Shown: one piece after another, positions 11,746 to 51,600 of the stretch
Numbering within the stretch: the first letter of the stretch is position 1
Layout of the letters: each line of letters starts with the position of its first letter
NCBI GenBank assembly: GCA_030704615.1
Contig: CM060734.1
Coordinates: 36,022,001 to 36,086,000 of the forward strand
DNA length: 64,000 nucleotides
Reading direction: 5' to 3'
Source: Takakia lepidozioides
Taxonomy: Eukaryota > Plantae > Bryophyta
The notes under the pieces: model-generated
Database searches by the model: none
What the model saw: only the letters and a program-made list of their open reading frames with translations
What the model was told of the DNA's origin: nothing
Translations under genes and position numbers: made by a program

Positions 11746-11747
11746 AG

Positions 11748-16110: not shown

Positions 16111-16290
16111 GACAACTAGCATGTAGCCCAGTGGTAATGGGCACATACCACGTTGGATGTGGTTGTGGGTTCAAACCACGGTCTGGTGTGTCATGAAGGT
16201 ATCCACCTTTCAGCTGGAAGGCAGTAGCCCTTGTGGTGAATGGACACCATAAGTTACGCTCCCTTCGGGAGGCGTCATATATATATATAC
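16111..16290 (+). mobile_element. tRNA-derived SINE, copy 3, inserted in the PPR pseudogene
   Basis: A and B boxes, (TA)n tail; TSD GTGATG(T/C)GGT at 16101-16110 and 16291-16300. Confidence 0.88.
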
Positions 16291-16530
16291 GTGATGCGGT
16301 TGGTTTTCACCCATTCGCACATCATTTGCTCATATGTCTCCAAAGCCTCCATCCCGCACCCTTGCTGTGCATATCCTGCAATCATCACACTCCACAACAC
16401 CACATCACGTTCAGCCATATTATCGAACACTCCATTTGCATCCTCGATGCACCCACATTTGACATACATGTCCATCAGGGCAATGTTCAGAATGAAATCG
16501 GTACAATTCCAGATTTGACGATGTCACCAT

Positions 16531-17762: not shown

Positions 17763-20023
17763 CATGGACCTCTTTGCCCTTTTCCAGGGCTGCCAGGCTT
17801 GCACACGCATTGCAAATGCAAACAAACGTCATGTGGTTGGGCTTCACCCCCTTCGCACATCATTTGCTCATAGGTCTCCAAAGCCTCCATCCCGCGCCCT
17901 TGCTGTGCACATCCTGCAATCATCGCACTCCACGACACCACATCACGTTCAGCCATACTGTCGAACACTCCCTTTATATATGTCCACGAGGGTGTTGTTC
18001 AGAATAACATTTGGTACAACTGCAGCTCTGACAATGTCGCCATGGACCTCTTTGCCCTTTTCTAGAGCTGCCAAGCTTGCACACTCATTGCAAATGCACA
18101 GAAACATGATGTGGACCTCGGGCTTCACCCCTTCCCCCATCATTTGATCGTAGGTCTCCAAAGCCTCCATACCACTTGCCTGTTATGGATACCTTGCAAG
18201 CATCGTGTTCCATGACACCACATCTCGTTCAGCCATAGTGTTGAAAACTCCCTTCGCATCCTTAATGCACTCACATTTGACATATATGTCCACCAGGGTA
18301 GTGTTCAAAATGACATCTGGTACAATTCCAGCTTTGACGATGTCACAATGGACCTCTTTCCCCTTTCCAAGAGCTCCCAAAGGCTTGTACACACATTGCA
18401 AACACAAACAAATGTGATGTGGTTGGGCTTCACCCTTTTGCGCAACATTTGTTCATAGTCTCCAAAACATTCCTACCACACCCAAGCTTGGTAAATCTTG
18501 CCAACATTATATTCTAAGTGATCAAAGATCGTTGAGGCATTCTGTTGAACACTTGGTGAGCATCCATGATGCTCCCGCACTTAACATACATGTTGACAAG
18601 GGTGTTGAGGAGAAAAACATTTGGCGTGAATCCACTTTAGATAATGCGAGTGTGTCTCCGCTTTCCAACTTCCAGACCTTCCATCTTGATGTACTTAAGC
18701 AAGAGACAGACATACATAGAAATGCCTCCTTGGTTTAAAGTTTGTAGAGCCTCTGTCAGTCTGCCTGCCGCACAAAGCATCTTTACATGCCCAGAAGTGC
18801 CAGAAGAGGCATTGTGGACTCCCTCTCTTGATCCTCTTTCAAAAGCTATGGTCATGGTTGAGGTGCCTGATTTTATCAACTGTGCCGCTGCAGTTTCTTG
18901 TAGCTATTTATCCACAGGGAATCATAGGTAATCTGGAGCTTGAAGTCCGGCCCTCTTGGATGAATCTGGACCCACACTCTATCCCTGCTCCTTCAGCTAC
19001 CTTTGCACAGATCATACATCCTTGCCTTGCTGCTAGCAGCTGACAAGGACAACCTAGATTTGTTCTAGGAAACACCCAAATCAACATATCCCACTAGTTC
19101 CTATGCTCAATTGCATCTGTTACTCTCTGTAATCCAACAGGCATTGATATTTTTGCATCGATTGTCCAACTATTGACTGGGGTCAGAAAAGTATTCATTC
19201 CACAGCTTCTCCTCGTCTCTGTTACTGACAGCGTGAAGTTCTTCCAGGACACACCCCAACCCTACTTATCGCACTAGTTCCTATGCTGACTAGTGTATTC
19301 ATTCCGAAGCTTCTCCTCGTTATCTGTTTTTGGATATTTTCCTGCTGCCACATCGGCAGTAACTTGTCAAGGTCACTCAAACCATCACAGATCCACCCAA
19401 CGAGCTCACTTACAAAATTCAATATGCATCTCAGGGCCGAGTCTGATGAAAGGGCAAAACAGGCTGAAATAGGTCGAAGAAGGTGCCTTCACCACATTGT
19501 CCTTGACCTTGTGTCATGACCCATGGAGGATTTGGGCAACCATCAACCCAAAAGGACCTCTTGTGTGTGCTGCTTGTGTCTGTAGTCAGGTAATGTCGGA
19601 TTGGTCTGTGAAAACCACCACAGTGCAGCTGAATAGGCAGAGATTGAAACACGGCCTGCAAAGACCAAGCTGATTCTCCCAAGGACCTTGTAAACATCAG
19701 GAAGAATACCAAAAAATGGTACTAAGAGTCCACATTTGCAGGATGGACAAACTTCTTCACATCGTACACTAAGAACACCTTGCGATTGCGGTTGTTCCAC
19801 CATCTGTGAGAGCTCTTGCGGTGTACTCATAATCTGCAAATGTCTCCATCTACGATCAGCGTGTGAAACCCCTCCTGCAGTTCAAAGAAGATCAAGAACT
19901 GAGTAGTTCCGGAAAACATGAAGCGAGTTCTATTGGCGTTTTTCGGGCGGGCAATCCGGGCAGATTCCAAAACATTTGACGATGATAATGGCAACGAAAC
20001 GTGGCAACGATGACATGGCAATG

Positions 20024-22790: not shown

Positions 22791-25304
22791 TCACCAATAA
22801 TCCCCACAAGAACACACCCCATTCTTGAAGTGATGAAAGCGGTTGGCATCCCTTGCCACAATTTCTCGTCCAACAATCTTCGATATGAGTTTGGTGGCGG
22901 TGTGACAATCACCACATACCCGCAGGTTCTTGATTATGCGGATCGGTGTCCCAGGAGGCGTACTGATGAGCCCAAAAGCAATTGCCAGCTTTTCGCTGTG
23001 GTGACACAGAGCCTTTTCCTTCACTCCATCATCGACATCATGCAAGACAAAGCGTGTATCTGGCACATATCCTGCCTCCTTCATTTGCCTAGTCAATGTC
23101 TCCAACTCGGCATAAATTTCCTTGCTTTTCGAGTGTGATCTATCTTCTACAAGGAACGTATGTACCCTATTCTTCACCTCTATCCAGCTGCGCCCTGGCT
23201 CTTTTTTCACACCTCTGGTGTCCATCATTTTTCTTACCCTTGCTATTTCATCCCACCTGCCAGCTGCCGCATAGATGTTTGAAAGCAGCACATATACTGC
23301 AGCATTTTGTGGTTCGAACTTGAGAACACGATCGGCGGTCCTTTCTGCTAGCTTCAAATTGCCATGGTTTCTGCATGCACCAAGCAGTGCCACCAAGACT
23401 GTAGCACTTGGTTCAAATGGCATTTTGTTGATCAAGTCATTTGCCTCATCCAATCTCCCTGCACGGCCAAGAAGGTCAACCATGCAGCCGAAGTGCATCA
23501 GCTTCGGTGTGATGCTGTGATCTTGGCTCATGGAAAGGAAGTAATGATGACCTTCATCCACTAGCCCCACGTGGCTACATGCAGAGAGAACACCAATAAA
23601 TGTCACGTCGTCTGGCTGCAGACCTTCAGATTGCATCTCTTCAAAGAGTTGGAGGGCCTCCTTACCATGCCCGTGCTGGGCATATCCTACAATCATTACA
23701 TTCCATGAGACCACATCCCTTTTGAGAATATCGTTAAACACTCGTTGTGCATCCCCCATGCTCCCACACTTAGCATACATGTCAACGAGTGCAGTCCCCA
23801 CACAGATATCTGACTCAGATTCCCTGATATGGGCATGTACCCACTTGCCCTCTTCGAGGGCTCCAATGCTGGCAACAGCCTTGAGGATGCTGACGCAAGT
23901 AGACTTGTCAGGTTTCACTCCTTCTTGTTGCATTTTCTGAAATAGTCCAAATGCCTCTGCACCATCCCCTTCCTGAGCTAATCCAGCCATCATTGCAGAC
24001 CATGAGATAACATCTCGCTCGGGCATTCTGTCAAACACTCGTTGTGCGTCCACCACACTACCGCACTTGCAATACATGCTGAGAAGAGCAGTCCCCACTC
24101 GGACATCTGACTCAAATCCAGCTTCGATAATTCCCACATGGACCTGCTTGCCTTGTGCCAGTGCTGCTGGGATGGCACATGCATTGAGAATGCTGATGAA
24201 GGTGACCTTGTCTGCTTTCAAGCCTTTTCTTTGCATTTGCCAATAGAGTTCAAAGGCATCTGCCCAATGACCCTGCTGACAATATCCTGTAATCATAGCA
24301 GTCCATGAGACCACATCTCGCTTTGGCATTTTATCAAACAATTTGCGTGCATCCACCACACTCCACTTGCAATACATGCTGACAAGGGCAGTGCCTACTC
24401 GAATATCCGACTCAAATCCAGCCTTAATGATGCTGGCATGGAGCAGCTTGCCATGTTCCAGAGCTGCAGGGGTGGCACATGACAGGATGCTCATGAACGA
24501 TATTTGGTTCGGTTTCACCCCATCTCCTTGCATTCGCTGAAAGAGTTCGAATGCCTCTCTACCATGCCCCTGCTGAGATAATCCTGCAATCATGGCATTC
24601 CATGAGATCAAATCTCTCTGAGGCATGTTGTCAAACACTCGCCGGGCATCCACTACACTCCCGCACTTGCAATACATGCCAACCAAGGCAGTCCCCACGC
24701 GCACATCCAACCCAAATCGAGCTTCAGCGATGCCAACATGCAACCGCTTCCCCTCTTCGAGAGCTGCTGGGCTGGCACACGCCTTCAGGATGCTAACGTA
24801 AGTTACCTTGTCTGCCTTTACGCCTTCTCTTTGCATTTGCCAAAAGAGATGAAGAGCCTCCTCACCATGACCGTGTTGAGATAAACCTGCAATCATCACA
24901 TTCCATGAGAACATCTCTCGCTTGGGCATTTCGTCGAACACTTTGCGTGCATCCACCACACTCCCACAATTGCAATACATGTTCAGAAGGGTGTTTCCCA
25001 GGAAGATGTCTGGCTCCAATCTACTTTTGATAATATGTGAATGGACTCCCTTTCCATCTACGAGGGTCCTCCTCTTAGCACACAGCTGCAAAAGCTGAAC
25101 ACACGTATCGTAGTATGCCCCATAGCCTCGTTTCTCCGTCAGGTCCAGCATCTCCTTTAAACCACTAGTTCCAGAGGTGTCAGTACTGTTGCTTCCATCG
25201 CCATCTCCATTTGATGTTTGTTTTCTACAAAGGGTGGCTGTGGCAATGCTCATACCGTTGGCCCCGTTCTGATGTCGATTAAACCGCGAGGGCTCGTTCA
25301 ACAT
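22791..25304 (-). CDS. PLS-class DYW:PG pentatricopeptide repeat protein (organellar C-to-U RNA editing factor), 837 aa, single exon
   Basis: 17 L/S/P motifs, E1, E2, PG box EPGRSWIEV, deaminase motifs HSEKLA and CGDC, C-terminus CSCGDYW. Confidence 0.95.
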   Translation of the reverse strand: MLNEPSRFNRHQNGANGMSIATATLCRKQTSNGDGDGSNSTDTSGTSGLKEMLDLTEKRGYGAYYDTCVQLLQLCAKRRTLVDGKGVHSHIIKSRLEPDIFLGNTLLNMYCNCGSVVDARKVFDEMPKREMFSWNVMIAGLSQHGHGEEALHLFWQMQREGVKADKVTYVSILKACASPAALEEGKRLHVGIAEARFGLDVRVGTALVGMYCKCGSVVDARRVFDNMPQRDLISWNAMIAGLSQQGHGREAFELFQRMQGDGVKPNQISFMSILSCATPAALEHGKLLHASIIKAGFESDIRVGTALVSMYCKWSVVDARKLFDKMPKRDVVSWTAMITGYCQQGHWADAFELYWQMQRKGLKADKVTFISILNACAIPAALAQGKQVHVGIIEAGFESDVRVGTALLSMYCKCGSVVDAQRVFDRMPERDVISWSAMMAGLAQEGDGAEAFGLFQKMQQEGVKPDKSTCVSILKAVASIGALEEGKWVHAHIRESESDICVGTALVDMYAKCGSMGDAQRVFNDILKRDVVSWNVMIVGYAQHGHGKEALQLFEEMQSEGLQPDDVTFIGVLSACSHVGLVDEGHHYFLSMSQDHSITPKLMHFGCMVDLLGRAGRLDEANDLINKMPFEPSATVLVALLGACRNHGNLKLAERTADRVLKFEPQNAAVYVLLSNIYAAAGRWDEIARVRKMMDTRGVKKEPGRSWIEVKNRVHTFLVEDRSHSKSKEIYAELETLTRQMKEAGYVPDTRFVLHDVDDGVKEKALCHHSEKLAIAFGLISTPPGTPIRIIKNLRVCGDCHTATKLISKIVGREIVARDANRFHHFKNGVCSCGDYW

Positions 25305-27306
25305 GAGTTGACACCCCAGCGTCCTGCGTGATAGACATGCAAGAGTTCAATCCAATTATGCTTCTCTGGCTCTTCATTGGTTTCGCAAAGAAACGGGTCT
25401 TACTCAAGCATTTACATTGGGTTAGGGTTTCAACTTTATTCAGACCACAGACGAGAGGGATGAGTTGAGCATATCATACCGAACACTACAAATCTGTCTT
25501 CGGAAGCCCATGGGTACGACGCCCCATGCTAACTCTCGCGAGCCGTGTGTCCTCCACAGCGAGAGGCCAAAGCCTGATCATAGTTTCCCAGTGACATGCA
25601 CAGAGACAATGCAGTGAAACCCACTAGATTATTTGCTGCTCCTCCCTCACCGCGCTAGCATGTTTGGTGGTTTGCAACAGATCCACTGTCTAGGGAGTAA
25701 CAGGGGGGAGGGGCGGGCCACGCAGGCACACCCGCCCAGGGAGCATTCAACTCCCGGGCCTTTTCTATTACTTGGCGATGTGTATGCAGGAAAGAGGGCA
25801 CAGGTGTCACATTCATTCCGTTAGCCGACAGTTGCAGACGTGCAACAGTTCAAAGCTGAGAGGTGCTTGTCCCACAAATGGATAGAAAAGATGAGGTTAA
25901 CTCACTGCCTGGTTCAGGAGTTTTCAATCGGATCCTGATTGGCATCACGATTTGTAGAGGTTGGAGAGAGAAATTGCGGAACCAAGAGGAGGGATGGATA
26001 AGTATGCTGAAACTAAAGAGAATATAGCAGCTGTGAGTGCGAGGGGTGGACATCAGTAATAACCAGACTGACAATATCGAATCCTCCACACCCGAGCTTG
26101 ACCGCAGGCTGCACTATGCGCGCATTAGACAACCATCTACATCAGTGTCGGTAGATGGCTTGACACAGCTGAGGCTCATCCATGACAAAATGCTTCGCTT
26201 CTGGGAAGATATGTGGACGAGCTTGCCATGCTGTCTGCCTGTACGACGTGCTTCCTCGTCATGCTTATTCCCTTATGCATGTGACTCGATCAACTTGACC
26301 CTCCCTCAAGGATAAACTGAGAGAGCGAGATGGGTCCAAAGGGCTTGCATAAGTAGGCAAGCTTAAGTGATTCTGTGAGGTATGCATAGCGCCTGTCACT
26401 CATGTGTGCAATCTCTGTATGCCAGGCTTTAAACAGATTGAGGGTGATCAATGCCAGAGCGGAAAGAGAACGGAAAACCCAGTACTATTGTGGAAATGTA
26501 TGATCCTACAGCATGTCTACCGTTGTTGTCCGACGACTGCAAGGATCAACATCGCAGAATCTCCCTCAAGTAAGAACATTGCAGCTGGGTTGTCTGCTGT
26601 TGTTTATCGACATTTGCGCCCCAGTACTACTTCAATGCACAATCTAGCATCAAGATTATCAAAGAGGGCCGCGGGATTTTTTAACGGCTTATGATCTTTG
26701 TGAAAGGAAGCGAATCTACAGGGCATAGAGATTGTTGAATCATGCGAAAAATACAAATCTGAACTTGAATAAACAGTCTGACTCCAGTTGCTGCAACCGG
26801 CCATCAAACAATCCAAATGTTGCAAGGCAAGAGGAAAATTGGGTGATCATGCAAGGTGGGAGATTCAAAAAATAGTTAAACTTTCGAGCTCACTTCGAGC
26901 TTTCTTTTCAGTGTTTAAATTGCAGGGAATATTCTTGCTCACTCCAGCAAAGAATGATGATTTCCCCTATTATACAAATCTACGGTATGATGGGTCAATT
27001 TTTTCCCACTGCTGGTTTTTCATTGAGCCTCGTGAACAAAATTCGGTACCCGGAACTACGGTTCAAACGCATCAAATGCGGCGCTACAATTGCGTGATGA
27101 CTACGAAAAAACTGCTCCGACGAAGCTGAAGTTGACGGATTGCATGTTGTTTGGGTTGTATCGGTTTTGATGCATAGCTCTACCAACGTCAAGCCCTACT
27201 CCCTAGCTGGGTTGACAAAAAAGACGTCCCCATTGAAGTCAGCCATTTACATGTTACTAACAAGGAAACACGGGCGGAGAGAGGGCGGAGAAGGGACGTT
27301 GAATGG

Positions 27307-27816
27307 CTAGTTGCAAAAATTGCGGTTGATGTGGTTGGAGTAGTCAAGCGTTCCAGCACCTTCCCATCCCATCCAGTCCTCCCAGTCCTCCCAAGAATTG
27401 TCTCCAACTCCCATGAAGCTCTCACCCTCGACTTCCCGGAATTCCCATTGTGCTTCCCCATTAAGAATATCCTCATAAGCTCTATGAATTTGTTGAAACT
27501 TCGTCTCGCAGTCCTTGTCCCTGCACACATCCGGGTGAAATTTAAGGGCGAGGAGGCGATATGCTTTCTTGATCTCTGTCTTAGATGCACTTGGACCTAC
27601 TCCCAAAGTTTTATAACAATCTTCGGTCACAACTCCGTTCGCAGACTCTCTCGCTGCCAAACCACGGCGATAACTTACACCGCTCTCTTGTCCCCAACTT
27701 ACCCCAGCAAAATGGCTTGGAGTGGAATTGGAAAGTGTTTCTCTTCGGAATGAGCTCATGCTTAGTCGTTGTACGGTACTCACGCTACTTCCAACCATCG
27801 AACACGCGTGAGCCAT
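27307..27816 (-). CDS. ATJ8: Chloroplast DnaJ 8-like J-domain protein, intronless, 169 aa from the first ATG
   Basis: J domain (YKTLGV...IKKAYRLLALKFHPD), Ser/Arg-rich N-terminus, family C-terminal motif WEDWMGWEGAGTLDYSNHIN. Confidence 0.85.
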   Translation of the reverse strand: MAHACSMVGSSVSTVQRLSMSSFRRETLSNSTPSHFAGVSWGQESGVSYRRGLAARESANGVVTEDCYKTLGVGPSASKTEIKKAYRLLALKFHPDVCRDKDCETKFQQIHRAYEDILNGEAQWEFREVEGESFMGVGDNSWEDWEDWMGWEGAGTLDYSNHINRNFCN

Positions 27817-28454
27817 AATTCTTCGCACTGATCTGTTCCAACTCCTGCTTTCCTGATCTCACCCAACCCAACTACCTGTACCCTTTCTATCAACGAAATT
27901 CTCCAAGTCTCTCCTCGAATCTACAAAGAACTCTACAACGTGTGATCTGTGAAGAGAGATCTACACTGGGACTCGGAAAACAACAAAGATTGGACGTAGA
28001 AACACAGAAACGAGCACAGCTTCGAGTGAGGAAGGAGCCGAGGATTTGTGCCCTTTTATGGCATGCGACTGAGCAGTTCGCTGCATCCTAAGCGGCAGCT
28101 GGATGTGGTGGGCCCCGGCAGCGGCTGCAGCCTGGGCGGGCCCTGCTTCCAAGGGGGTAACTTAGCCCCCGCTGGTGGGAACATGTGCACGGAATTCTAC
28201 CCCCTGGGCGGCTAAGAGTTTCTTTTTAAAAACATTTAAAAAAAAAACAAGGAGCGACAACTCACAATTCAGGCAGAAATCAAGTTTTGTTTTAAAAATC
28301 GAAAATCAAGTTGAGATTTAACAGCAAGTCTATACGTCTATACAGTAATTAATTAATCAAAAAACTCTTGACGATAGAAATTCGTAGAATAACACGTGTC
28401 GACTAAGGACTAACTATAGGACAAAATATTATATTTATTTATGATAAGACTACT

Positions 28455-32080: not shown

Positions 32081-34410
32081 AGGATAGACCACAGCTTGAA
32101 TTTGAGCCTATGCTAACGAAATTTGGAATGAAGCCCTGAGCACCATGTAGAAACCAAAGCGAAAAAATAACAATCACGGTGCTCACACAATCTGAACTTG
32201 CAAAGTAGCACAACCTCCCACAATTCCAAGGTCACAAAACTGTGGGATGCACATGTGCGGCACTTCCCCTCTATGCCCATACCCCAACACTCAAGCAACC
32301 TTTTGTTGATCAAGAAGAGGCACTACAAAAAGACCAGGCTCGCTTTCACACCCTTGACAAGTGAAAAACTAGGACTGGCCGCAAAAAGGTTACGAGCCCT
32401 TCGGGCATATCCCCAGGAGGATATATCATATTTGTCATGGTTTTAGTCATGGTTAACTAGAATTACCTACTTCTAATAACTAGGACATTTTGGATATTAT
32501 ACTACAGTTGCAAGCATCCATCTCCAGTGATCGACGTAAGCTCCTAGCGAAGATCGATATCATGGCTTTATATTTGTATTTTGTGTGTTGGGACTTCATT
32601 TGGTCTCACATGCCAAGTGAGGTGTCCAACCTCACTTGGGACATGGGGATGGGCTTTCCCCTTGTGAGTGTTGAGGAGGGCTCATCTTCTTGTAGTTGAG
32701 CCTCCATGAGCCTCTCTCACCTCCATATTGAGAGGGAGTGTGTTGAGGGCTTTGTAGGGTGGATTCCCTTAGCAAGAGTGCCATTGGCTTGACTTAGTTT
32801 ATGTGATTGAGTGGATTCATGAGTGGATTGTTTCCATTGTGTTCACTTTCATTATCACTACAAAAAGATGACCTTATACTTGTAAATGCGGAGTATAAGG
32901 GTTAGTTTAGCACTCGTGTGTTGAAGAGCTTGGGAAGATAGCTCTTGTATTGCAAGGTGTTCTATATATTGCAAAGGAAAATCCTTGTGGTGTTAGGACT
33001 TTGAGAGATATTGCTTTGCCCTACAGAGGTGGAGATCTCAAAGATGGAGCTCTTGTAGATCACAAGCCTTGCAAGGAAAGGTTTTTGGTGAAGTTGCATG
33101 CACCAAGGAATTGAGAGCAAAGAGAATTTAGCTCTTGTATTACAAAGCTTGCAAAGGTTACAAGGAAAGGTATTTGTGGTATTACACCAAGGGTATTACA
33201 CCAAGGTGTTGGGGAGCTCATGAAGGAGCTTGTTTGCCACAAGATTTGAGAGGATTGCAAGAGGGAAGTCTTGTGTGTGTGGAAGCATGGATTCTAAGGA
33301 TTGAGAATCATTTCTATGCATTATGGAGTCAATGGTGTATGCCATGGCTTGTGGAGAGCAACTAAATGATTGTTAGTACTCATTTCACTATCAATCTAGG
33401 GTTAAGCAAGCTCAAGTGTGGATGTTGTGGAAGAGAAGCCAATGAGCTACATAGGCCAGGGCTTGAAGACAATAAGGGCAAGCACTTGGAGAGCATTAGG
33501 AAGCTCAAGAGGTTTGAAGGGGAGCACGGGAAGAAGTCTTCCAATCATGGTGGTGTAGAGCCAAGCTTAGGGCATTGGAAGGGCTTGGAGAACAACTTGT
33601 GGAAAGTCCTTGAAGAGATATCATCATTCAAGCATGCTTCTCAAGTGTGGCTTCCAATTTCAAGCTTGAGGAGAGCTAGAAGGTGAAGGGAGCAAGTTGA
33701 TTCCCTTGTGTATGAGGTGATGCATGTGTGGAGCATGCTTTTGGCTTGAGCTTTGCAATTTCAAGCTTGAGAGGAGTGGCTCTTGAGCTAGCAATTGAAT
33801 GGAGCTTGAATGATCAAGGCTTGAGAGGAGACAAGGCTTGGAGGCTTGCCAAAGGAGTGACATAGGAAGAGTCCTTGGAGGACTGTTTGGGGTCCTTGGA
33901 GGACCATTTGGAGTTCTTTGGAGGACTGTTTGGGGTTCTTGCAGGCCAAAATTTGGCGAGCTTGAGGAGTCTTTGGCGACTTCTGTGAGGGACTATTTGG
34001 GGTCATCGAGGGCTAAGTTTGGGTAGGCTTTTTTGGGGCTTTGGTGTACTGTGCACGAGGGATTACATACCATGAGCTCTTCATTCGATTGTTGTCAGAT
34101 CATCCTACAGATGGCTCTATTATGAGAACTAAAGCCATTGTTACGGACGCAATGTCTTATGATGTGCTTGTTGGTGGGGCTGTGTTATACCCGATGGGCT
34201 TTACTTTGGACTTTTGGGAGGAAACGACATCCTACAGGCCAGAATGACAGTCAGGGGATGGTCGACGTGCACTGCTCCCAGTGCGGTTTATTGGGAATGT
34301 AGCGGTGGATCATAGGAACATGATGCCCACAGTGGCTGCATTCTCAGGGGTGGTGGCTTGGGGTGGTGAGCTCTTGGAGTGCAATAGCCATGCAAATGAT
34401 AGGCCACCAC

Positions 34411-34860
34411 ATACTAGATGCAGCAGCGGTGGGATCACGCACACATCAACCTCGATTGTGGTGGACTAATCTTGCACCACCAGAGCTGCTCAAAAGAGCA
34501 TACAATTCCATTCAACGGCCACCCAATCTCACGGTTGAGGGCATTTTGGACCAAGGGAGGCAACCACAGAGGGTGCGACATGATGACCGTCCACCTCTTG
34601 CAGTGGTCAATCGAGTGGGGCAGCCACGTGCGGCCTTGCCTACGCTTATGAGCTTTCTCTCGTCTCATGCTTTTTGAGACAATGGTCCTGGGTTGATTTG
34701 GGACAGTGTGCTACAGCAATTGGTGGAGCCCAATGCAGATGAGCAAGAGCGGGCAATGGGATTTGTCATGGGCACTATAGCTGTGTCATCTCTGTCAGAG
34801 GCATCACGCCAATATGTGTTGGATCAAGCAATGGATCTAAATTGCTTGACATAGATCATT
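34411..34860 (+). pseudogene. C-terminal half of a C5 cytosine DNA methyltransferase domain within the retroelement polyprotein
   Basis: Reading through two stops gives ILDAAAVGSRTHQPRLWWTNL (motif VIII-like), EPNADEQERAMGFVMGT (motif IX-like) and SEASRQYVLDQAMDLNCL (motif X-like). Motifs I-VI are not seen. Confidence 0.75.
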
Positions 34861-34917
34861 AGCTTGTGCATGGCTGAGCAACGGAGGTTACAGACAGTGG
34901 TGGCTATTTCTGTACTC

Positions 34918-37840
34918 TATCAAGTTATTTCACCACTAGTGTGAAAGTAACAAAGAAATAGCTAGCTTTTACATATTGACATTTGGGATTGCCTAAGTAT
35001 CAATCCAGGGGTCAAGGCAGATTTAGGCCCTGGAGTGGTTATCTTCACGGCAAGCGCATGAAGCTCATCTTTTTCGAGTTGAGCCTCACCGCGCCTAGCT
35101 ATGGCGTCATAGTGTGGATTCCCCATGGCGTGGGGTCCACTTGGCTTGACTTGTATTTGAGTGATGAGGTTATATATGCATGAGTTTATGCTTCAACTTT
35201 GTGAGCCCCCGGGGCCGGCGCCGAATTTGCGACACCCGACCGTCGCCTAGCAGTCGCATGGGCGTCGCCAAAAGACGCGCAAAAATGCGACGTATGGGGG
35301 TCGCAAGCCCCCGCCGCAACTCCCGCGACTACCGGACGTCGCTTTTGGGGCCGTCCGCACCGATGGCAGGGGCCTCCTTCGAGCGACGTCTCGCCGTCGG
35401 GGCCCTCCAGCCGACGGCGTTGGTGGGGGCGACGTCGCATTTTTTTTTTTTTTTCTAACCTGCCCGGGAGTCCCATCCTAAAACCCAAAAACACGTGGCG
35501 TAAGCCAGGTGGTACGCCAAGCGACGCCAATGTGTCGCTGAAAGCGACTATTGGGCGTGGCAAAAAAAAACCAGCAGGAAGAGGAGTCGGGCTCCGCCAC
35601 GCCCGGGCGTGGGTTTTCACGATGCTCTGGCGTCGCTTTTTGATATTTAATCAAAAAAATAAAAGACGTGGCGCAGACAGGGTGGCGGGCTCCGCGACGC
35701 CAGGGCGTCGCGGCTTACGACCCCCGGACCCAAAAAACACGTTGCAGGGGGTGTCGGGCGTTGCCACCCGCAAATGGGGTATGCGACGCGGGACCGTCGC
35801 GGCTTGCAACCCCCGCCCAAAAAGCACATCGCCAATGGCGACGTCTTGCAGTCACGAGGGCAGCCTGGGGGGGGGGGGGGGGGGGTTGGGGGTGATTTTT
35901 GTTTTTTGCCTGGTTTTGTTTTTGGGGATGAGAGACCTAATCCTTTACCAATCATGAGATTGGGCTACAGGTGGAGTCTTGACTTCGCAGGACCGTTGAC
36001 ACTGACTATGCGCCACCGTAGATATATGTTGGTGATTGTGAAACACTTCTCCAAGTGGATTGAGTTGGTTCCATTGTCTGACAAGGCTAGTGATGGGGCT
36101 GCGTATGCATTCTTGGATCGTGTTCTTAGCCGATTCGGTGCTCCAGCTGAGGTACTCATGGACCAAGGGAGAGAGTTCTTGGGGGAGTTTCAGGCTTTGT
36201 GTGATAAAGCCTTGATTGACCACCGTACCACTTCTCGGGGTCGTCTTGAGGCCGATGGCTTGACAGAGAGAGTTGTTCAGACGGTGAAGAGGGGTTTGCG
36301 CAAGTATGGCTGCAGAAGGGACACCTAGGAGATTGGGATCTTCAGGTGCCTTGGTTAGCCATGGGCTACAGAGTCAGCAAGCAAGCATCACTTGCCTCCT
36401 TCTCACCATATTTCCTTCTTTTTGGCCGAGAGCCGGATTTGCCTGCAGCCATTCGTAGGGACACTGCTCAAGTCCTCAACCTTGACGATCCGGACATGTG
36501 GGTACGTGCATGTGATCAGTGGGCAAAGTTGTTCAAGAAAGTCATGCCCATGGCTTTTGAGAACCTTGCCATTACACAACACCGTGATACGTTGAGGTAT
36601 GTTACTATACGTGGTGGAGGATATCGTCCTGGGGTTCGGAGGTTTAGCCCTGGTGACTATGTTTATTTGCAGCAGACTGCTCCTACGACCCTAGATATCA
36701 CTGCAGGGCGTGTTATTCTGGGTTCGAGAGGTATAGCCCTCAGGAGTCCTGATCTTGGAGGGTCGGGATGGCATGACTTGGAAAGACCATGTGCGTAATT
36801 GTGCACCATGTCACCTTCCCAATGTCGATGGCAGAGTTGACCCAAACTTGGTAGTGGTACCTGCAGGTTTGAGGTGCATGCTCTGTGGGTCTGCCAAAGG
36901 GGCAGCCACCGTGCTGGTGTATGATTGATGCTCAAGAGGTTGGGACATGGGATGCTTGACACCATTTCTTGATAAGGTTCCTGATGGAGATTGGTTGTGT
37001 CCACACTGCTTGGGATAGTGGCGGTGGACATGACTAGAGGTAGCTAACAAGACATGGGAGGCCAAGCTCATAGGAGTCAATACACGAGATCCCAGGCTCA
37101 AGTTCACAGGTTGCAAGACGGCGACTAACGATGGGGCAACTCTTGCACCCGGCCTTTTGATCTATCGAGTTTGAGTGTAGTAGGGATAGTGGTGGAGGAC
37201 TTAGTGAGGCTACGGTCACTATTACATCTTGTGGCTATCTGGACTTAGAGGGACCTAAGCACCAGCTAGGGGGGCGATTGTGGTGGACTAGTGACTGCCA
37301 TAATGGGCAGCCTAGCGATTGACTAGTGGCAGCCTAGTGGTTGGACTAGTGGTGGACTAGTGGTATACTAGTGTGTGGTGTGCACATGTGTTGTGTGGTT
37401 TTGGACAGCGATGTAGTTGTGTAGCGATATATATGCGCACGACAGCTGTCAAGTTATTTCACTATCAGTGTGAAACTAGCTAGGAAATAGGTAGCTTTTA
37501 CATATTGACATTTGGGATTGGCCCAAATGTCAATTCAGGGGTCAAGGCAGATTTAGGCCCTGGAGTTATTATCTTCACGACAAGCGCGGGAGGCTCATCT
37601 TTCTCGAGTTGAGCCTCACCGCGCCTAGCTATGGCGCCGTAGTGTGGATTCCCCATGGCGTGGGGTGCACTTGACTTGACTTGTATTTGAGTGATGAGGT
37701 TATATATGCATGAGTTTATGCTTCAGCTTTGTGTGGTTGGACTAGTGGTGGACTAGTGGTATACTAGTGTGTGGTATGCACATGTGTTGTGTGGTTTTGG
37801 ACAGCGATGTAGTTGTGTAGCGATATATATGCGCACGGCA
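34918..37840 (+). mobile_element. Nested, internally deleted Gypsy-type element of a sister family (integrase + PHD) with split direct repeats
   Basis: 4-bp TSD ACTC at 34914-34917 and 37841-37844. Repeats A1 34918-35203, B1 37279-37444, A2 37447-37731, B2 37732-37840. PPT at 37268-37277. Integrase core WSLDFAGP...DQGREF...ERVVQTVK. Removing it restores the host reading frame. Confidence 0.9.
35935..37018 (+). pseudogene. Integrase core plus C-terminal PHD finger (inner element)
   Basis: ORFs 35774-36328 and 36346-36798, followed by CMLC...CSRGWDMGCLTP...VPDGDWLCPHC. Confidence 0.88.
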
Positions 37841-38183
37841 ACTCTCATTTGGTATTGCATCCTCTCTGCCAACCGGGACGGTTGAGGCAATGAGTGTCGG
37901 GGGCGAGCACATGATCATGGAGTGCAAACACCCATGGCAGATGTGGGATGAGATGCAGAAAGAGAAAGTCATTGGATATCTCAGGGAGCAATATGAGGAG
38001 TGAGGAGAGCCATACATAGAGAATCAGTTGGAGGCCAAGGTGGCCAACACTACTGAAGAGGTTGAGGATGTTTCTTTCGCAGAGGATGTTCTCAAGGTGG
38101 CTATGACGGAGCAAGTGGAGGCTACGCCACAGTCAAGGTGGGCGGACAAGGCCCAAGAGGTTGTTATCTAGCAATCAAATGAT

Positions 38184-41100
38184 GTGTCTCCTACCTCCAA
38201 GCCTGGTGTACCCAAGGTTGCCGTCACTGAGGACAATTGGGAACCAGATGTTGGACCTATAGTCACCGGAGGAGAGAGACGGAGGATCCAGCGATTTCTA
38301 AGGGCTTATAGAAATTGCTTTGTCTTCGGTTTGAAGGATTTGGGGAGTTTGAAAGGCCAGGAGATTCGTATTGATTTGGCAAGTGACATGCCAATTTTTT
38401 GAAGGCCCTATAGGTATAGTGATATGGAGAGGTATTTGATCCAGTCACGGACTATGGAGTTGTTCGAAGCTGGATTGGTGGAGTTGTCAGGCGGGGAGTA
38501 TACCTCGGCAACAGTGATGCCAGCTAAGAAGGATATCTATGGCAATTGGACAGAAATGAGGATGTGTGGGGACTACCATCCTATGAACCGTTAGACTAAG
38601 TCCGATAGATATGTCATGCCAACTCTAGATGAGATCTTTGATGCCATTGGACATGCAAAGGTGTTTGGCACATTGGACTTGCGATCTGGTTACCACCAGT
38701 TGCCAATCAAAAAGGCTGACAAGCAAAAGACGGCATTATGGGGGATTGACCAACATGAGAATGATTGCTTGTACCAATGGCGGTTCCTACCGTTTGGGTT
38801 GAAGAATGCTCCTACAGAGTTTCAGAGGGTCATCGATAGAATTCTTGCGGGGCTAGACTTCGCTCGGTGCTACATTGATAACATCATCATCTTTAGTGCT
38901 ACGATTGAGGAGCACGTCGAGAGACATCTTCAGATGGTATTTGAGTGTTTGAGAGCGCATGGGTTGAAATTGCACCCTGGGAAGTGCAAGTTCTTCCACA
39001 ACCAGATTGAGTATTTGGGCCACATGATATACCCTGGAGGATTGGGTGTTCAAAAGACGAAGGTAGAGGCCATAACACGCATTCCAAGCCCCATAGATAT
39101 TAGCAGAGTTCGTGCTTTCATGGGGTTGGCAAACTACTATCGATGGTTTGTCAAGGGATTTAGCAGCATTGCAAAGGCTGTTACCAAATTGACCAAGGTG
39201 GATCAGGAGTGGCAGTGGGAGGAGGAGCAGGAGGAAGCTTTTGAGGAATTCAAGGCTCGATTGACTTCTGTACCTATTCTGAGGCGGCCTATTCGGGGGC
39301 GGCCTTTCCAGCTACATACTGATTAGAGTATACTGGGGATTGAAGCAGTGCTCACACAGGTGGATGATGAGGGAAGAGAGCTCGTAGTGACATATGTCAG
39401 CCGCTGGAACAATGATACCGAGGCGAAGTATAGCTCATATGAAGGGGAGTGTCTAGCTGCAGTATGTGCAGTGACACATTTCAGATGCTACCTTATGACA
39501 ACCTCTTCACCCTTGTCAGGGATCACCAACCATTTGAAGTGGTTGATGGAATCAGACAAGCTTACATGGAAGCTTGCACGGTGGGCACTTATGCTTCAAG
39601 AGTACAACTTCCAGGTGTTGCATCGAGTTGGTAATTAATCGGAATGCAAATGGGTTGAGTCGTAATCCATGCACGAGCGAGCATGACGATACTGGAGCTC
39701 GGTGACATTTTGGGGTGCGGCACACTCATAGTATGCTACAAGGACAGTACTAGTGGCGGGGCCCGCACACGGATGTGCAACAGTTAGTGGCAAAGTACAT
39801 GGTGTGTGATAGAGTGCGGGCTTCTATTAATGCACCTACTCCACAATTGCATCCTTTACCCATTATGGGTTTGGGCTATCGTTAGAGTCTTGACTTCGTA
39901 GGCCCATAGCCACTAACGCTTCGCCATAACAAGTTTGTGCTGGTGATGGTGGAACATTTTTCCAAGTGGATTGAACTGGTGGCATTGCCTGACAAGGCAA
40001 GTGAGGGGGCTGCGTATGCATTCTTAGATCGAGTACTTAGCCAATTTGGTGCTCCAGCCGAGGTACTCACGGACCAGGGGAGAAAATTCTTGGAGGAGTT
40101 TCAGGCTTTGTGTCAGCAAACCTTGATAGAATACCACACTACTTCTCGGGATCATCCCGAGGCTGATTGCTTGGCCGAGAGAGTTGTTCAAAAAGTTAAG
40201 AGGGGTTTGCGAAAGTATGGCTTGCAGAAGGGACACATGGGAGATTGAGGCCTTCAGCGGCCTTGGTTGGCTATGGGCTATAGGTTCAACAAACAAACGT
40301 CACTAGCCTCATTCTCACCTTACTTTCTTCTCTTTGGTCAAGAGCCAGATTTGCCTCCATTTATTCGCAGGGCGACTACAATAGTCATCAACCTTGATGA
40401 TCAGGATGTGTGCACACAAGCATGTGCCCAGCGGGCAGAGTTGTTCAAGAGAGTCATGCCTATGGCTTTTGAGAACCTTGCTATTACCTAATACCGAGAC
40501 ACATTGAGGTATGCCACTATTCGTGGAGGGGGATGTCGTCTAGTAGTTCGGCGTTTCCATCTTGGGAACTATGTGTATCTGCAGCAGATAGCACCAACGA
40601 CCTTGGATGTCACAGCAGGGTGTGTGATTCTAAGGGTTTAGGAGGTGTTGTCTTCAGGAGTGTTGATTCTGGAGGGTCAAGATAGCATGGTATGTAAGGA
40701 CCATGTGCACAATTGTGCGCCATGTCACCTTCCACATGTGGATAGGAGGATAGATCCCAACCAGTGTTGGACTGGTATATAGGTGAAGGACTGGTATAAA
40801 GTACTGGTATATGCACTGGTATTCGATACCAGACCAGTCTGGTATCGTTTGGGAGAATACTTGGTCATATACCAGACCAGGCTAGTATCAGTTTTTTCAT
40901 ACCAGCCACAATACCAGTACTCCCCCACAGTCTACCTCATTTACTCTGGTATGTATACCATATTAATTTATGTGTACATTTGCCTATACATTTGTATTTA
41001 TATATATTTACTTCTAAAGCCATCTTGAATTACAAGTTTATCAAATAACAAATATCAAGTGAAAATAAAAAAATACACATAAAGGATGATCCCAAAGTTG

Positions 41101-41451
41101 ATACCTCATACCAGCTGGTATTGTGGTCATGATACTCATACGCATACCAGTATTTGGACAAATATACATCCACCATTATATAGACCAGACTGGTATGAAA
41201 ACTTGTGATACGCCTGGTACCAGGACCAGACTGGTATGTAAAAAACTTGATACCAGTCCAACACTGATCCCAACCTTGTTGTGGTACCTGCAGGGTTGCG
41301 TTGCATGCTATGTGGGCATGCTGGTGGTGCCGCAACCATATTGGTGTGTGGTAAATGCTCAAGGGGGTGACACATGGGACGCTTGACACCGCCACTTGAG
41401 GAGGTTCCTAGTGGAGAATGGTTGTGTCCACGATGCCTTGGACAGAGGTAG
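38184..41451 (+). pseudogene. RT-RNase H-integrase-PHD pol pseudogene (outer element)
   Basis: ORFs 38616-39326 (RT), 39348-39638 (RNase H), 39937-40491 (integrase); PHD CMLC...[29 protein letters not shown] at about 41300-41451. Confidence 0.92.
40762..41266. mobile_element. hAT-type MITE inserted between integrase and PHD
   Basis: 17-bp TIR CAGTGTTGGACTGGTAT; 8-bp TSD ATCCCAAC at 40754-40761 and 41267-41274. Confidence 0.95.
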
Positions 41452-43714
41452 TTGGGCATGATAGTGGTGAGGTTGACAAGTGATCCAAGGTCTAACTAAC
41501 GGGAGTTCAATGCCATGACACCCAGTTGAGGCCATGGATTGCAGGAAGGCGAGTAACAATGGAACTACTTTTGCACCCGGCCTCTTGATCCATTTACTTT
41601 AGAATTGGAACATGTGCGATTGAAGAGCAAGCGATGATCTTATTGAGATGGATACTTGTCAGCTATCCGGTTTTAGAGGGACCTAATCATCAGCTAGGGG
41701 GGCGATTGTGGCATATCTTTCTGGGATTGTGTGCTTAGAATGTATGGTAGACAACGAAGTATGTTGTGGTACAATGCTTAGGTGCACGACAGCTGTCATG
41801 GTTTTAGTCATGGTTAACTAGAATTACCTACTTCTAGTTAGCTAAGTTATTTTGGATATTTATAATTGTATTTTGTGTGTTGGGACTTCATTTGGTCTCA
41901 CATGCCAAGTGAGGTGTCAAACCTCACTTGGGACATAGGGATGGGTTCTCCCCTTGTGAGTGTTGAGGAGGGCTCATCTTCTTGTAGTTGAGCCTCCATG
42001 AGCCTCTCTCACCTCCATAGCTCTAGGTATTGAGACGGAGTGTGTTGAGGGCTTTGTAGGGTGGATTCCCTTAGCAAAGGTGCCCTTGGTTTAACTTAGT
42101 TTATGTGATTGAGTGGATTCATGAGTGGAGTGTTTCCATTGTGTTCACTTTCATTATCATTGTGGCATAGCTTTCTAGGATTGTGTGCTTAGAATGTATG
42201 GTGGACAATGATGTATGTTGTGGCACGATGCTTAGGTGCACGACATATCCAACCATCACAGGCAAGCATCAGTAACTACACTTCTGCCTGACGGATGCTA
42301 CATTGCATACCCCAGCTGATTTGGTTTAGGGAAATAGGAAATAAGAGGGCAGATAACATTTTAGGAACTAGAGAAAGAAAAGAAAACAATTTATAGAGGA
42401 ACAGGTCTGTGCAGGTAATGACATATGAGTTAGAGAGGGTACAAAAACAGACCATGTGGTGAAGAACAAAGCCAAGGCCTTCCTCAGGGGTCTTGGGAGG
42501 TATGATGAGCTCTCATTTCTCAAAAAACAGCAATGGTGCATCCAAAAACTTTTCTGGTGCAAACCACCTAAAAGAAAGTGCCCACATCAAACTCCCTGCT
42601 GCCGAAAGACCTGGAAGTAATACATGCTCATATCTGGACATATTCTCTAACGAACGACCAAATGGTCAAATACAGAAAAGACAACCCCTGATATCCACCT
42701 TGCTAGCCACTAAAGCATGAACTTGATAGAAGGAATCATACAGGTGATACCTAAATTGAATTCCAATGGCTGCATTACGCCTAGACACTAGCAAAATTTG
42801 GGGCCACTAGATTAACTCTTGCAAGGCCCTTGAAGTCAAGTGTATGTGAAACATCAGTGCACGGCTTAGATTATTATATTCACATCCCAAGCTAGCATAT
42901 ACAATCGTCTCAGGGTAGCTCTGGATAACCAGTGACTCCGAATACCCAACGAGAATGCAGGGTTCAAAGTCGATGCTTACTAGTGGCCAGTGTTGACAAT
43001 GAGGACATGGTGGCTATGTGGAGCTTTCGCCCATGTGCTTTGTGGGACATCAACATCAACTCGAAACCCTTTCTTATAACCCAGTTTCTCCAGCTCCCCA
43101 CCGCTTTCATTCACCTCCCATCTAAGGCACTCCCACCAATTGAAAAGCAGTTCTATTTCTCCGGACTTTTTCTTTGTCTCATGCTAATGAGGAACCTGAA
43201 AAGGTATCAAACAGGTCAAATCTTGTAGAATGTAAAGGGAAAGCTTGTGTTGGCCAAGGCCACCCTTCAGCCAGATTGATTGTGATGATACTTACATCCT
43301 TCCACAGCCCGTGTTTGACCAAACTCAGGCTTCTCATCATAAACTGTAATTCTACCAGAATTTGGACTCCAGTGTTGAAAATTCAATAAAGCTCCAAAGC
43401 TCACTCCAGAATGCGAGCCATATTCTGATATCCATCCACCATCTCATTGTGCTTAGGTGTTCTATGCTTATTGCTTGGCCTACATGCAAAGACCATTGAA
43501 ACATAAATCTAAAGCAGCTCCGGAATGCAGATATAGACTTCCCCTAAAATCTCCCCTCTCCGTCTCTCTGCCTACAGTGGTGTGACTAGCACTGCAATAA
43601 GAGAAGATGTTTTACCAAGGCTCCCGCCAACAGTACCCCAATTCACTGTCTTCAGATTTTGTTGGCTGTGAACGAGCACCTCGTGATTCTTGGTTGAGTT
43701 TCTATACCCTGATA

Positions 43715-48606: not shown

Positions 48607-51600
48607 TTACTCACCCTCATACTCTACAAGAATGTAAAGTGGCGTAGTACCCAATTTCTCCCGACCCTGCAGCCCATCACTTCAAATTCTCAGCGAAAAG
48701 CTCCTTCATGCTCCAGGTAAGGAGACCGAATTGCAAGGGCTGCTGCGTTGCAATGGATGTGTGTTTGCTGGTGCTGTCTGAGGGAGGGAGCAAAGTGAAG
48801 AGGATTTCTAGTACGGGTTTATGTGGGCTGTTGTCCTTATCTCTAATGTCTAGACAACATTACAAAATTCAATTTTGGGATGGAGATAGACTGCAGGAAG
48901 ATGGAATGACGCCTCAATGCCCACAACACTAAATGATTGCGTGGGTGAGGACGGCAAGAAGTTTGTATCAACCCTCTTATTCGAATTTATAATTGACAGG
49001 TAGGCAGTGACTTACTTTTAGATCGGAGAGCTCAATCACACACGCACATTCCACAATCTGCGCCTGAACTTTTTCTGTCGAGTCACAACACCTCACATTC
49101 AGCTCCAAAAGAGCGTTTGTGGTGATACGTGTTCATTGCTGATCCCTACCGGCCCATAGGCCACAAGGGGAAAAGCCAACAACAAGCTCTTTCCCTCTCT
49201 CCCTGTTGTCTCTTCCCCTCTCTCTCTGGCAGTGCAATCAAAGCCACATAAGTGACATCTGGGTTATATTGTGGGACTCCAGCAGCAATCTGTAGTAGCA
49301 GCAGTCAACTCGTGGTATACCAATGTTGGAAAATCCTGGCTTCGACATTGACAACTAGATTGTTGTTGGCAATGTGAGCACTGTGGTAAGTTCATGTTTT
49401 AGGCTTGTACCCTAGTGAGCTTAAACCCCATATCCTGCTTCTGGAGGGCAGTACCCTGTGAGAATTACACCCTCAGAGGTGAGCATCAAAAGGGAATGGT
49501 CATGGGTAGAACACCTCTCTCTCTCCACATAACTAACCATCTTATGGTGCACCTAATCAAAATTTAGACGAGCACAAACAGGATTCTACTGACCAAGTAG
49601 CTTAATGGCTGCACCAAGGGTACCCCCTGTTGCAATCAAATCATCAACGATAAGAGCTCTTTCGCCCTTCTCCACGGCCCCTACATGCATCTCAATGCGA
49701 TCTGTCCCATACTCCAGCTCATACTCCTGCCCAATGACTGGACCTGCAAAAGGAAAATTGTCAGAAATGCTCGGATAGATACAGCAGAAAAAGGACAGAT
49801 GTCAGGCTGGGGAAAATTATTTTCCCCAGGGACCATGTTCTTAAAAGTATGTCCTAGCCGTGCACCTTTTCCTCTTTCTATCTCTCTCTTACACACACAC
49901 ACGCGCACACACACACACTCTCTCTCTCTCTAATAGCCACAAGGTTACAGCAAACAACGTCTTATGAGTACATTCTCTCTATTTAAACCTCGGTAGAGTA
50001 TTTCAGGTGGAATAAGGTGATTTTTTCCTATGGATGTCCTGATACTGACAAGTAGACACTTGCTGCTCCCTGGCTAGGGCCTTGTAGGATTTATTGAGTG
50101 CCCATGTGCTGGCTTAAATTTAGGGTTTCAGAACCCTAACCCTGCAATTTAGTACTCATTTACGAAAATTGTTTAAGTACGAATGCGGCTACCTGAAACT
50201 ATAGGCAAAGTGTCGGGCACACCGCTCACCAGGCTTTGCCTTCAAGAGTTTCTCATTAGGGTTGTAGTCAGCAAGGTTTAAGCGCAACCTTGCCAAGCTT
50301 CCTATGCAGTTACAGGGAAGCCATGGCTCAGTTGTTGACATGCACAGGAAGTTACACTAAGCCCTTACCTGTGCTTTGCACTTATTTGTTGTTGCACGAA
50401 CGGATACACGCAATGTCGCAGACTGGTCTGCCTCAAACTTTCAAGGTTCTGTGCAATGTCACAGCTTTACTATTACTCTTGCAATCAATCACTTGCTTAT
50501 CTGCATGTTGGACAGCAATAGCAAGCGTGAAGACCTGCTACTCACCTTGCACATCTCACTAGCTCGCATTCTGTTGGATGTGGTGGTTTCTGGGACGGGT
50601 GCAGGTGAGGGTCCTTCACCTATCATGGGTCTCTAACCTACATGTGTAAGTTGTGCTACAGATTTAATTGGATAGATAATGGAAATCACCTATCACATGA
50701 GGCAGCCACTGCCTAGGAGGAATTGTGCAACGCTTGACAACAGCCCCATGTTTCTGTGAGGGAAGTATTTTACCGAAGTAATCTACCCTTGGGATCTGAT
50801 ACCGGAGGGTTCTGAAGACCCGTCTTGACTTGGATCGATCTCAGTTTACAGCCCAGCTGAGTGGTTTCATTTTGAATACTGTGTTGTTTTGTTTTAAGAC
50901 ATGGCAGTACAACCTATTCGGCCTATGGTGGAAGACTTGGTGTTGTCTCAGTTTTGAGACATGTGATTTTTAGGGAGGTATCTGTGTCGAAACTGATCCT
51001 CACAGAGAGGTACAATGCTCGATTTCCTGTGGGCAGAGGTCTCTATGGTTTTAAGCAAGCACTGGTTTGCTTAAGTAAAGGCTAAGGCTGACTTGGAGGT
51101 CAGACCTACAGTCCACATGCTGAAAAGCACAAAGTTCACTTCTGGAAATCCCAGTATGACAGTACAGTCAATATGAATATTGTTCAGTATGATATCTGTC
51201 GCTCTGAAGAAAGGTGGGTTTTTGAAGGGTTTCTAGAAAACCCCACCACCCACCCCAATCACCCACAAGTGTGAAACAAATCAGGAGCAAGACTGTGGTT
51301 TAAGGGAAGGAATATGGTGCCTTGCAATGCAAGGCTGTTTTGTCCTGGTTTTTATTTTTAACATTCTGATCTGGTCAAGTCCTGACGTCCTGCCAGATCC
51401 TCCCTTGTCGTGACAAGACAAGCCCTCTCTCTCTCTCTCTCTGCTTTCATCCAGACTGGATAAGGTCCATAGCCGGAGGGCTACCCCAATTACAAAGTGC
51501 TCAATCCATCTCTTCTCTCTTGTAGTGGGCTCGTTTGTGTGCATGTTATAAGAGGAGGTATCTGAAAAAGGAAAGAGTGAAAAGAAACACCAATACCTGG

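Follow-up and report, generated by a model that had tools for sequence, protein, structure and literature searches.

The stretch at positions 34411–34917 of the window, by which we mean the whole 64,000 nucleotides of Takakia lepidozioides DNA analysed here, is the C-terminal half (motifs VIII–X) of a DNMT3-like cytosine-5 DNA methyltransferase (DNMT) domain in a dead Gypsy element. It is very probable, at roughly 0.93, that this element is a dead copy of a multi-copy land-plant Gypsy family with a DNMT3-like domain. The element belongs to the kind described as KnitGypsy-Dnmt3 (PMC5890265), which is here extended to land plants. Beyond the 2018 description, the present analysis adds the land-plant members, a conserved stop that puts the DNMT in the Gag ORF, and the near-invariance of the catalytic Cys, Glu and Arg residues.

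The methyltransferase remnant

The remnant lies on the plus strand and comprises motif VIII, the variable region, motifs IX and X and the next helix; it contains two stops and has lost motifs I–VI, as judged from reading frame, homology, alignment and profile. The frame that begins at 34411 is interrupted by two stops (TGA at codon 89 and TAG at codon 148), whereas the remaining forward frames have six and seven. Translated with X at the stops, this frame matched 39 of 1025 candidate proteins at E ≤ 0.001, with 52–67% identity (best match 67%; E value 6e-65), and the gene models among these relatives come from Marchantia polymorpha, Calypogeia fissa, Riccia sorocarpa and three Sphagnum species. 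The fragment shares 63–67% identity with the gag-protease-DNMT ORFs of Marchantia and Calypogeia, and its alignment with the Marchantia protein P0003 scored 221 bits, versus 22.7 bits for the best of 100 shuffles. The two stop columns are occupied by Arg and Trp in the relatives (alignment A1), which fits a deamination origin of the TGA and TAG codons. Thus, the proposal in the preliminary description of this DNA, namely a single frame with only two stops compatible with deamination of CGA and TGG, is borne out, and the peptides quoted there are present in the frame.

It had also been proposed that motifs I–VI were deleted at about 34408 and that the copy is dead. Up to residue 798, P0003 corresponds to 34062–34406, and from residue 1045 it corresponds to 34411 onwards in another frame. 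Nothing in the window corresponds to residues 799–1044 (about 246 codons, including motifs I–VI), and a change of frame occurs at 34406–34411, in full agreement with that proposal. The window copy does not retain the catalytic motifs: I, IV and VI are missing, Gln stands in place of the first Arg of motif VIII, and the frame is broken by two stops.

A Pfam search with the fragment alone returned no family at E ≤ 0.1, because the N-terminal half of the domain, the part detected by PF00145, is deleted. A PDB sequence search with the fragment alone gave no significant match, the single one having an E value of 0.14. Upstream of the region shared with the fragment, however, the relatives extend into a full C5 methyltransferase, and 14 of the 21 scanned match PF00145 above its curated cut-off. 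The profile check suggested beforehand therefore succeeds with the relatives and fails with the fragment itself.

Relationship of the domain to DNMT3

A profile built from 11 family sequences ranked 29 DNMT3A/B/C enzymes first (E values 3e-19 to 3e-14), followed by DRM-type enzymes (7e-11 to 6e-8) and then by bacterial ones (3e-7 and weaker). The same profile aligns the two motifs of the window to the motif VIII and motif IX stretches of DNMT3A, in keeping with the motif VIII–X character originally attributed to them. For the intact relative P0010, AlphaFold gave a model with a pLDDT of 90, which matches DNMT3A in Foldseek (E value 2e-19; TM 0.64/0.82), and all 35 rows listed in that search belong to the DNMT3 family. 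DNMT3 enzymes are hence the closest solved enzymes both by sequence and by predicted structure. With host enzymes of the DNMT3/DRM type (human DNMT3A/B structures; moss DNMT3, PMC6453930) the family domain shares the fold, the unpermuted motif order I–X and a close match in motifs VIII and IX. It differs from host DNMT3 in its identity of about 22% to DNMT3A, in being intronless and located inside a polyprotein, and in having no detected PWWP, ADD or UBA domain; it differs from DRM in that it is not permuted.

Residue conservation was counted after aligning 257 domains with the fragment; many of the rows are nearly identical and all were found by similarity, so that the counts are not independent events. 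Where the DNMT follows the protease (61 proteins), 59 retain the catalytic Cys, 61 the Glu, and 59 and 60 the two Arg; where it follows RNase H or precedes the integrase (131 proteins), the respective numbers are 131, 131, 131 and 130. The SAM-binding motif I is likewise kept in the protease-DNMT proteins (Phe in 60/61, Gly in 59/61). Had intact members lacked motifs I, IV and VI, the assignment would have been in doubt; the motifs are present (Phe 60, Gly 59, Cys 59 and Glu 61 of 61), and motifs I, IV, VI and VIII are also kept in the named Marchantia, Calypogeia and Klebsormidium proteins. The Pro that precedes the catalytic Cys is changed to Glu in 6/61 protease-DNMT proteins and in 72/131 RNase H-DNMT-integrase proteins; the three Closterium rows are among the proteins so changed.

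Decay is evident in the metagenome loci described below: of the 63 loci that span all eight sites, only 19 keep every one and only 2 are free of stops in the domain. Between the DNMT half of the window and seven loci, dN is 0.27–0.29 and dS 1.9–3.2, the latter near saturation, which makes the ratios rough; for the RT, dN is about 0.2. Among close loci the dN/dS of the DNMT runs from 0.28 to 3.4 and is noisy, these being dead copies. The comparison of the window with the seven loci indicates that the DNMT has been under purifying selection, as far as a dS near saturation allows this to be read from sequences.

Architecture of the outer element

The outer element spans 32433–42245 on the plus strand, begins with TG and ends with CA, and is flanked by a 4-bp target-site duplication with one mismatch (TATT at 32429–32432 and TATC at 42246–42249, three of four letters alike, as read from the sequence). 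Its repeats are split in the order A-coding-B-A-B, unlike those of ordinary LTR elements. The 5' copy of repeat A (32433–32857) has the TG start and an extra stretch of 70 nt at about 32497–32566, and is identical to 41794–42159 in 338 of 355 aligned columns. The 3' repeats (41705–42245) consist of B (41705–41791), the dinucleotide GC, A (41794–42159) and B (42159–42245) with the CA end; the B copies are identical at 80/87 positions, and the B-A junction is the palindrome GACAGCTGTC. The divergence of the repeats is K2P 0.05 and 0.086. The CG measure of the element is 0.45–0.55 versus 0.53 for the window, so that the element is no more CG-poor than its surroundings.

Repeat A is followed by a 5' leader (32858–34061), in which gag and the N-terminus of the protease are undetectable and presumably deleted; no gag match was found in the outer element at E < 0.05, most of the protease is gone as well, and the leader is covered by contigs from the same organism. 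The C-terminal part of the protease and the start of the protease-DNMT linker occupy 34062–34410 in frame +3, up to the deletion (48% identity to residues 682–798 of P0003; E value 3e-26). Downstream of the DNMT remnant and the nested element described below, alignment to the relatives identifies the tail of ORF1 at 37845–38168, in phase with both the remnant and the RT and with one more stop here. The reverse transcriptase and RNase H (38235–39708; RVT_1, E value 3e-28; 61% identity to Marchantia P0029) are interrupted by stops and small frameshifts, and are followed by the integrase core and C-terminal part (39826–40760; rve, E value 1e-11). A PHD finger at the integrase C-terminus (41284–41442; PHD, E value 2e-9) is separated from it by a 513-nt insertion, which is skipped by a contig joint. 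A DIRS-type tyrosine recombinase element is ruled out by the DDE integrase and the 4-bp duplications; DIRS-type elements are not known to make a target duplication.

The 513-nt insertion between integrase and PHD finger (window 40753–41275) has a 10-bp duplication and is skipped in other copies. The length of this duplication suggests that the insertion is a Mutator-type miniature element.

The nested element and other copies in the same organism

The remnant is followed by a nested element (34918–37840, plus strand), which is internally deleted, belongs to a related family and consists of A (34918–35203), part of an integrase (35939–36847), a PHD finger (36857–37015), B (37337–37444), GC, A (37447–37733) and B (37733–37840). 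Its layout is that of the outer element, its target duplication is perfect (ACTC at 34914–34917 and 37841–37844), and its repeat divergence is K2P 0.094 and 0.036. Immediately after it, at 37845, the outer frame picks up again in the phase of the RT. The nested integrase is 78% identical at the DNA level to the outer one, and gag, DNMT and RT have been lost from the nested element. The GC-rich stretch of about 730 nt at 35204–35935 has no match elsewhere in the window. In one run, contigs accumulate most strongly on 34918–37840, and the nested element may therefore represent an abundant non-autonomous form.

Several sequencing runs from the same organism bear on the number and the state of the copies. 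In run X1, 39,074 contigs fall on 32300–42400, as expected of a multi-copy family, although contig depth sums for these runs are not copy numbers and the window may itself derive from X1, which does not count as independent support. Beyond 34410, some contigs continue with other sequence (13 in X1, two in X5 and one each in X8 and X9, with at most 30 letters of continuation). Ahead of 34417, other sequence is found in five contigs of X1 and two of X5, and it resembles the coding sequence of the relatives just upstream of motif VIII. Thus, the deletion is not common to those copies.

The ORF1 stop and the production of ORF2

It had been suggested that the frame of the remnant runs on toward the RT once the nested element is removed. 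This is correct insofar as the frame resumes in RT phase, but it is interrupted by a conserved stop at 38169. In the window, this ORF1 stop is a TAG followed by CAATCA (38169–38177, plus strand), identified by comparison with the loci, and it fits the context CARYYA, which is known for readthrough in tobamoviruses (consensus as given in PMC2754532). Among 53 alignable loci, a stop follows the DNMT in 50 (37 TAG and 13 TAA), CAA comes next in all 53, and the RT follows in the same frame. The ORFs of Marchantia and of environmental sequences also end shortly past the DNMT. Because of this conserved stop (50/53 loci; TAG-CAATCA in the window), the DNMT of the land-plant families is assigned, from sequence comparison, to the gag ORF rather than to an open fusion with the RT.

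As regards the synthesis of ORF2, it is possible, though less likely than not, that ORF2 is made by re-initiation, from an internal promoter or by splicing, not by readthrough. An in-frame ATG two codons past the stop in 51/53 loci speaks for this alternative, as do the six bases after the stop, which are CAACCC in 50/53 loci and a full CARYYA in 0/53, and the use of TAA in 13/53; in addition, some algal-type relatives (P0288 and P0339) are open from gag to integrase in one frame. On the other hand, the family of the window has no such ATG and instead has TAG-CAATCA, a context found at 2 of the 749 plus-strand TAG triplets of the window, although this is one decayed copy and the context was noticed post hoc. 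Furthermore, the CAA after the stop is present in both families.

Relatives and order of domains

Full-length homologous ORFs are present in Marchantia, Calypogeia, Riccia and Sphagnum. The Marchantia gene models include unbroken gag-protease-DNMT ORFs of about 1280 residues with all motifs (e.g., Mp4g09160, Mp5g06330, Mp5g06860, MpVg00370 and MpVg00540), and they are annotated as hypothetical proteins. The order of domains in the family is gag-protease-DNMT, the stop, and then RT-RNase H-integrase-PHD. From 218 confirmed metagenome matches 74 loci were kept; since the query consisted of protease plus DNMT, only the order downstream is unselected, and there the next domain is RT in 48 loci and integrase in 2, while 22 have no further domain and 2 are uncovered. 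The succession protease-DNMT-RT was found in 37/74 loci and the whole order from gag to PHD in 7/74. Locus L027, with complete A-coding-B-A-B repeats and the target duplication AAGG/AAGG, is the sole one of the 74 with the whole arrangement, most being too short or decayed. The ORF1 tail of the metagenome loci is nearly that of the Sphagnum fallax model P0038, which identifies the loci as moss-like DNA.

A larger sister group (P0060–P0104 and P0188–P0333), in which the DNMT lies between RNase H and integrase, accounted for 93 of the 146 DNMT-matching representatives among the best 150. Its named members are chlorophytes, and the DNMT thus occupies two places in related Gypsy polyproteins. The representative search profile (611 positions) included integrase columns, and the 679 matches at 1e-30 and 3151 at 1e-10, of which the best 150 were examined, are therefore not counts of DNMTs.

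Descent and comparison with known systems

In a DNMT tree of 42 rows, which were chosen by hand from the 257 domains and later additions, 29 form one clade with support of 98/99. This clade holds the window, Marchantia, Calypogeia, the moss-like loci, three Closterium rows and one Klebsormidium nitens protein; the tree is midpoint-rooted with no host DNMT3 as outgroup. For the window row, just 47% of the columns are occupied, and the node that carries it is supported at 90/88. In a quick RT tree of 27 rows, the RT of the window groups with those of Marchantia and the loci (SH-aLRT 100). Chlorophyte elements with the DNMT after RNase H fall outside the clade of the window in both trees. DNMT and RT have, on this sequence evidence, descended jointly, and midpoint-rooted trees without a host outgroup fit a long vertical descent through the streptophytes.

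The fragment has 39% identity (E value 4e-28) with the gag-protease-DNMT protein P0330 of Klebsormidium nitens (GAQ93235.1), which is marked partial and ends just past the DNMT. We infer that P0330 represents the KnitGypsy-Dnmt3 element of the 2018 paper. According to de Mendoza et al. (2018, PMC5890265), KnitGypsy-Dnmt3 of Klebsormidium nitens combines Gypsy domains with DIRS-type repeats, and its DNMT is placed inside DNMT3 in their tree. It agrees with the present element in the Gypsy domain order, in a DNMT3-related domain with catalytic residues and in the A-coding-B-A-B repeats. It differs in its algal rather than land-plant host and in having the DNMT in the Pol ORF, whereas here the DNMT closes the gag ORF before a conserved stop; moreover, the window copy is dead. 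The original claim, i.e., a Gypsy lineage related to that of Klebsormidium with its own C5-MTase between protease and RT, is thus upheld by homology, order of the loci, fold and tree alike.

SymbioDIRS-Dnmt3 of Symbiodinium (PMC5890265) is also a retrotransposon-borne DNMT3 with split repeats, but it employs a tyrosine recombinase and is described in that paper as an independent capture, in contrast to the DDE integrase and 4-bp target duplication found here. Chlorophyte Gypsy elements with the order RT-RNase H-DNMT-integrase-PHD (Hariotina, Haematococcus and Monoraphidium) have a homologous DNMT (33–45% identity to the fragment for two named rows) and a PHD finger on the integrase; unlike here, their DNMT lies between RNase H and integrase, and they stand outside the clade of the window. 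No published account of these chlorophyte elements was found in the accessible parts of the literature searched, and a PHD finger has been noted in a Chlamydomonas Gypsy (10.1101/2022.06.16.496473). The EpiLTRs of Cymbomonas and Euglena (bioRxiv 10.64898/2026.05.21.726589) are LTR elements with a cytosine DNMT as well, yet their DNMT is sister to DNMT4 and is accompanied by an adenine methylase and a chromodomain; the preprint itself separates EpiLTRs from 'streptophyte Gypsy-DNMT3'. Phygy/Selgy (Neumann et al. 2019, PMC6317226), compared by their description, are like the present element non-chromovirus Gypsy elements of seed-free plants with 4-bp target duplications, but have tRNA primer sites and no extra polyprotein domain, and Phygy prefers NCGN targets. 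None of the duplications here (TATT/TATC, ACTC and AAGG) is NCGN.

In the accessible literature, two later mentions of 'streptophyte' Gypsy- or retrotransposon-DNMT3 cite the 2018 paper (PMC5890265). Neither land-plant members nor the ORF1 stop are named in the parts of the literature searched, although rows may stand in supplementary trees of PMC12344493 and of the 2026 preprint. The accessible portions of PMC11982613, PMC8616336, PMC11244446, PMC12885004, 10.1101/2021.11.30.470311, 10.1101/2022.06.16.496473 and PMC6453930 contain no word on Gypsy-DNMT3 in land plants, and Marchantia is absent from three supplement files of PMC5890265.

Proposed function

In intact elements, the enzyme is probably made with Gag and methylates the element's own new DNA, and self-methylation of the cDNA is a step which we consider rather more plausible than not. 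Architecture and residue conservation are observed directly, the functional steps of self-methylation are inferred, and direct evidence of activity comes from SymbioDIRS-Dnmt3 only, whose DNMT3 methylates CG de novo in yeast (PMC5890265). According to the proposed sequence of events, ORF1 would be translated at the level of Gag, so that many copies of the DNMT would enter the particle, where the protease would free the domain, and ORF2 would arise from leaky reading of the ORF1 stop. The DNMT would then write 5mC on the cDNA before or during integration, and the new copy would carry the marks of host-like or silent DNA on arrival. Integration might be steered toward particular chromatin by the PHD finger. 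The internal B-A junction could template both cDNA ends, with the central GC as the dinucleotide trimmed by the integrase. The complete scenario, in which an active DNMT3-type enzyme was carried from streptophyte algae into land plants, was kept in liverworts, mosses and this host, and is made at the Gag level via a leaky stop, packaged and directed at the element's own cDNA before integration, is put forward tentatively, the odds being somewhat against all of its parts holding together.

Alternatively, the target of an active enzyme might be chromosomal DNA, be it the site of integration, sister copies or rival elements, and the enzyme would be brought there by the integrase and its PHD finger. 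Such a target would account equally well for the conserved catalytic residues and would give the PHD finger on the integrase a part, and effects on chromatin at the insertion site are raised in PMC5890265. A place in the Gag ORF, however, suits a particle protein, and a Pfam scan reveals no chromatin-reading module belonging to the DNMT domain itself, so that we regard a chromosomal target as unlikely. Less likely still is a non-catalytic reason for the retention of the domain, such as nucleic acid binding in the particle or shielding of cytosines, or an action of the domain on the RNA of the element. The Klebsormidium domain did not methylate in yeast, a result which the authors call inconclusive as human DNMT3B failed too (PMC5890265), and the change of Pro to Glu at motif IV in many relatives points in the same direction. 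Against this stand the Cys, the Glu and both Arg, which are nearly invariant across groups with only about 35–50% identity, and the preserved SAM-binding motif I. It is extremely improbable that this single copy picked up part of a host DNMT3 or DRM gene, or that the assembly is chimeric here; an architecture common to several species refutes both. The fragment is indeed cut at both ends, but the same domain occupies the corresponding position in numerous species and loci, the DNMT and RT trees agree, and 1541 contigs of one run from the same organism fall on 34200–34700.

Self-methylation of the element's own DNA, the reading preferred here, bears on why a transposon should carry the class of enzyme that silences it, a question left by PMC5890265, in which the Gypsy case is an alga with an inconclusive yeast assay. 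The unbroken Marchantia ORFs make this question testable with genetics and methylomes, and the conserved stop leads to a specific prediction on the amount of enzyme and the place where it is made. In bryophytes, element-borne copies may have to be told apart from host genes when DNA methyltransferase genes are counted. If the proposal is true, de novo cytosine methylation in a model plant would have a source that annotation has missed, the intact Marchantia copies, and the failure of LTR surveys to notice the lineage would be explained by its split repeats.

Other features of the window

A decayed element at 7000–12042 has a pair of 187-nt direct repeats that are 94% alike, and is of Copia type as judged by the text of its ORFs alone. 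At 22791–25346 (minus strand) lies an intact PPR gene without introns that ends in DYW, and decayed arrays of PPR repeats occur at 54–1396 and 14875–18684. The PPR-DYW protein has 50–57% identity alike to most of its moss, lycophyte and gymnosperm matches, a pattern that marks the host as a land plant. A DnaJ-domain gene is present at 27307–27858 (minus strand), with a similar second stretch at about 60200–60314 in the ORF list. The exons at 51490–52103 (minus strand) are presumably those of an adenine phosphoribosyltransferase, as they read like this enzyme; a Pfam search with the single exons gave no match. A tandem array with a period of 38 nt occupies 56436–56708.
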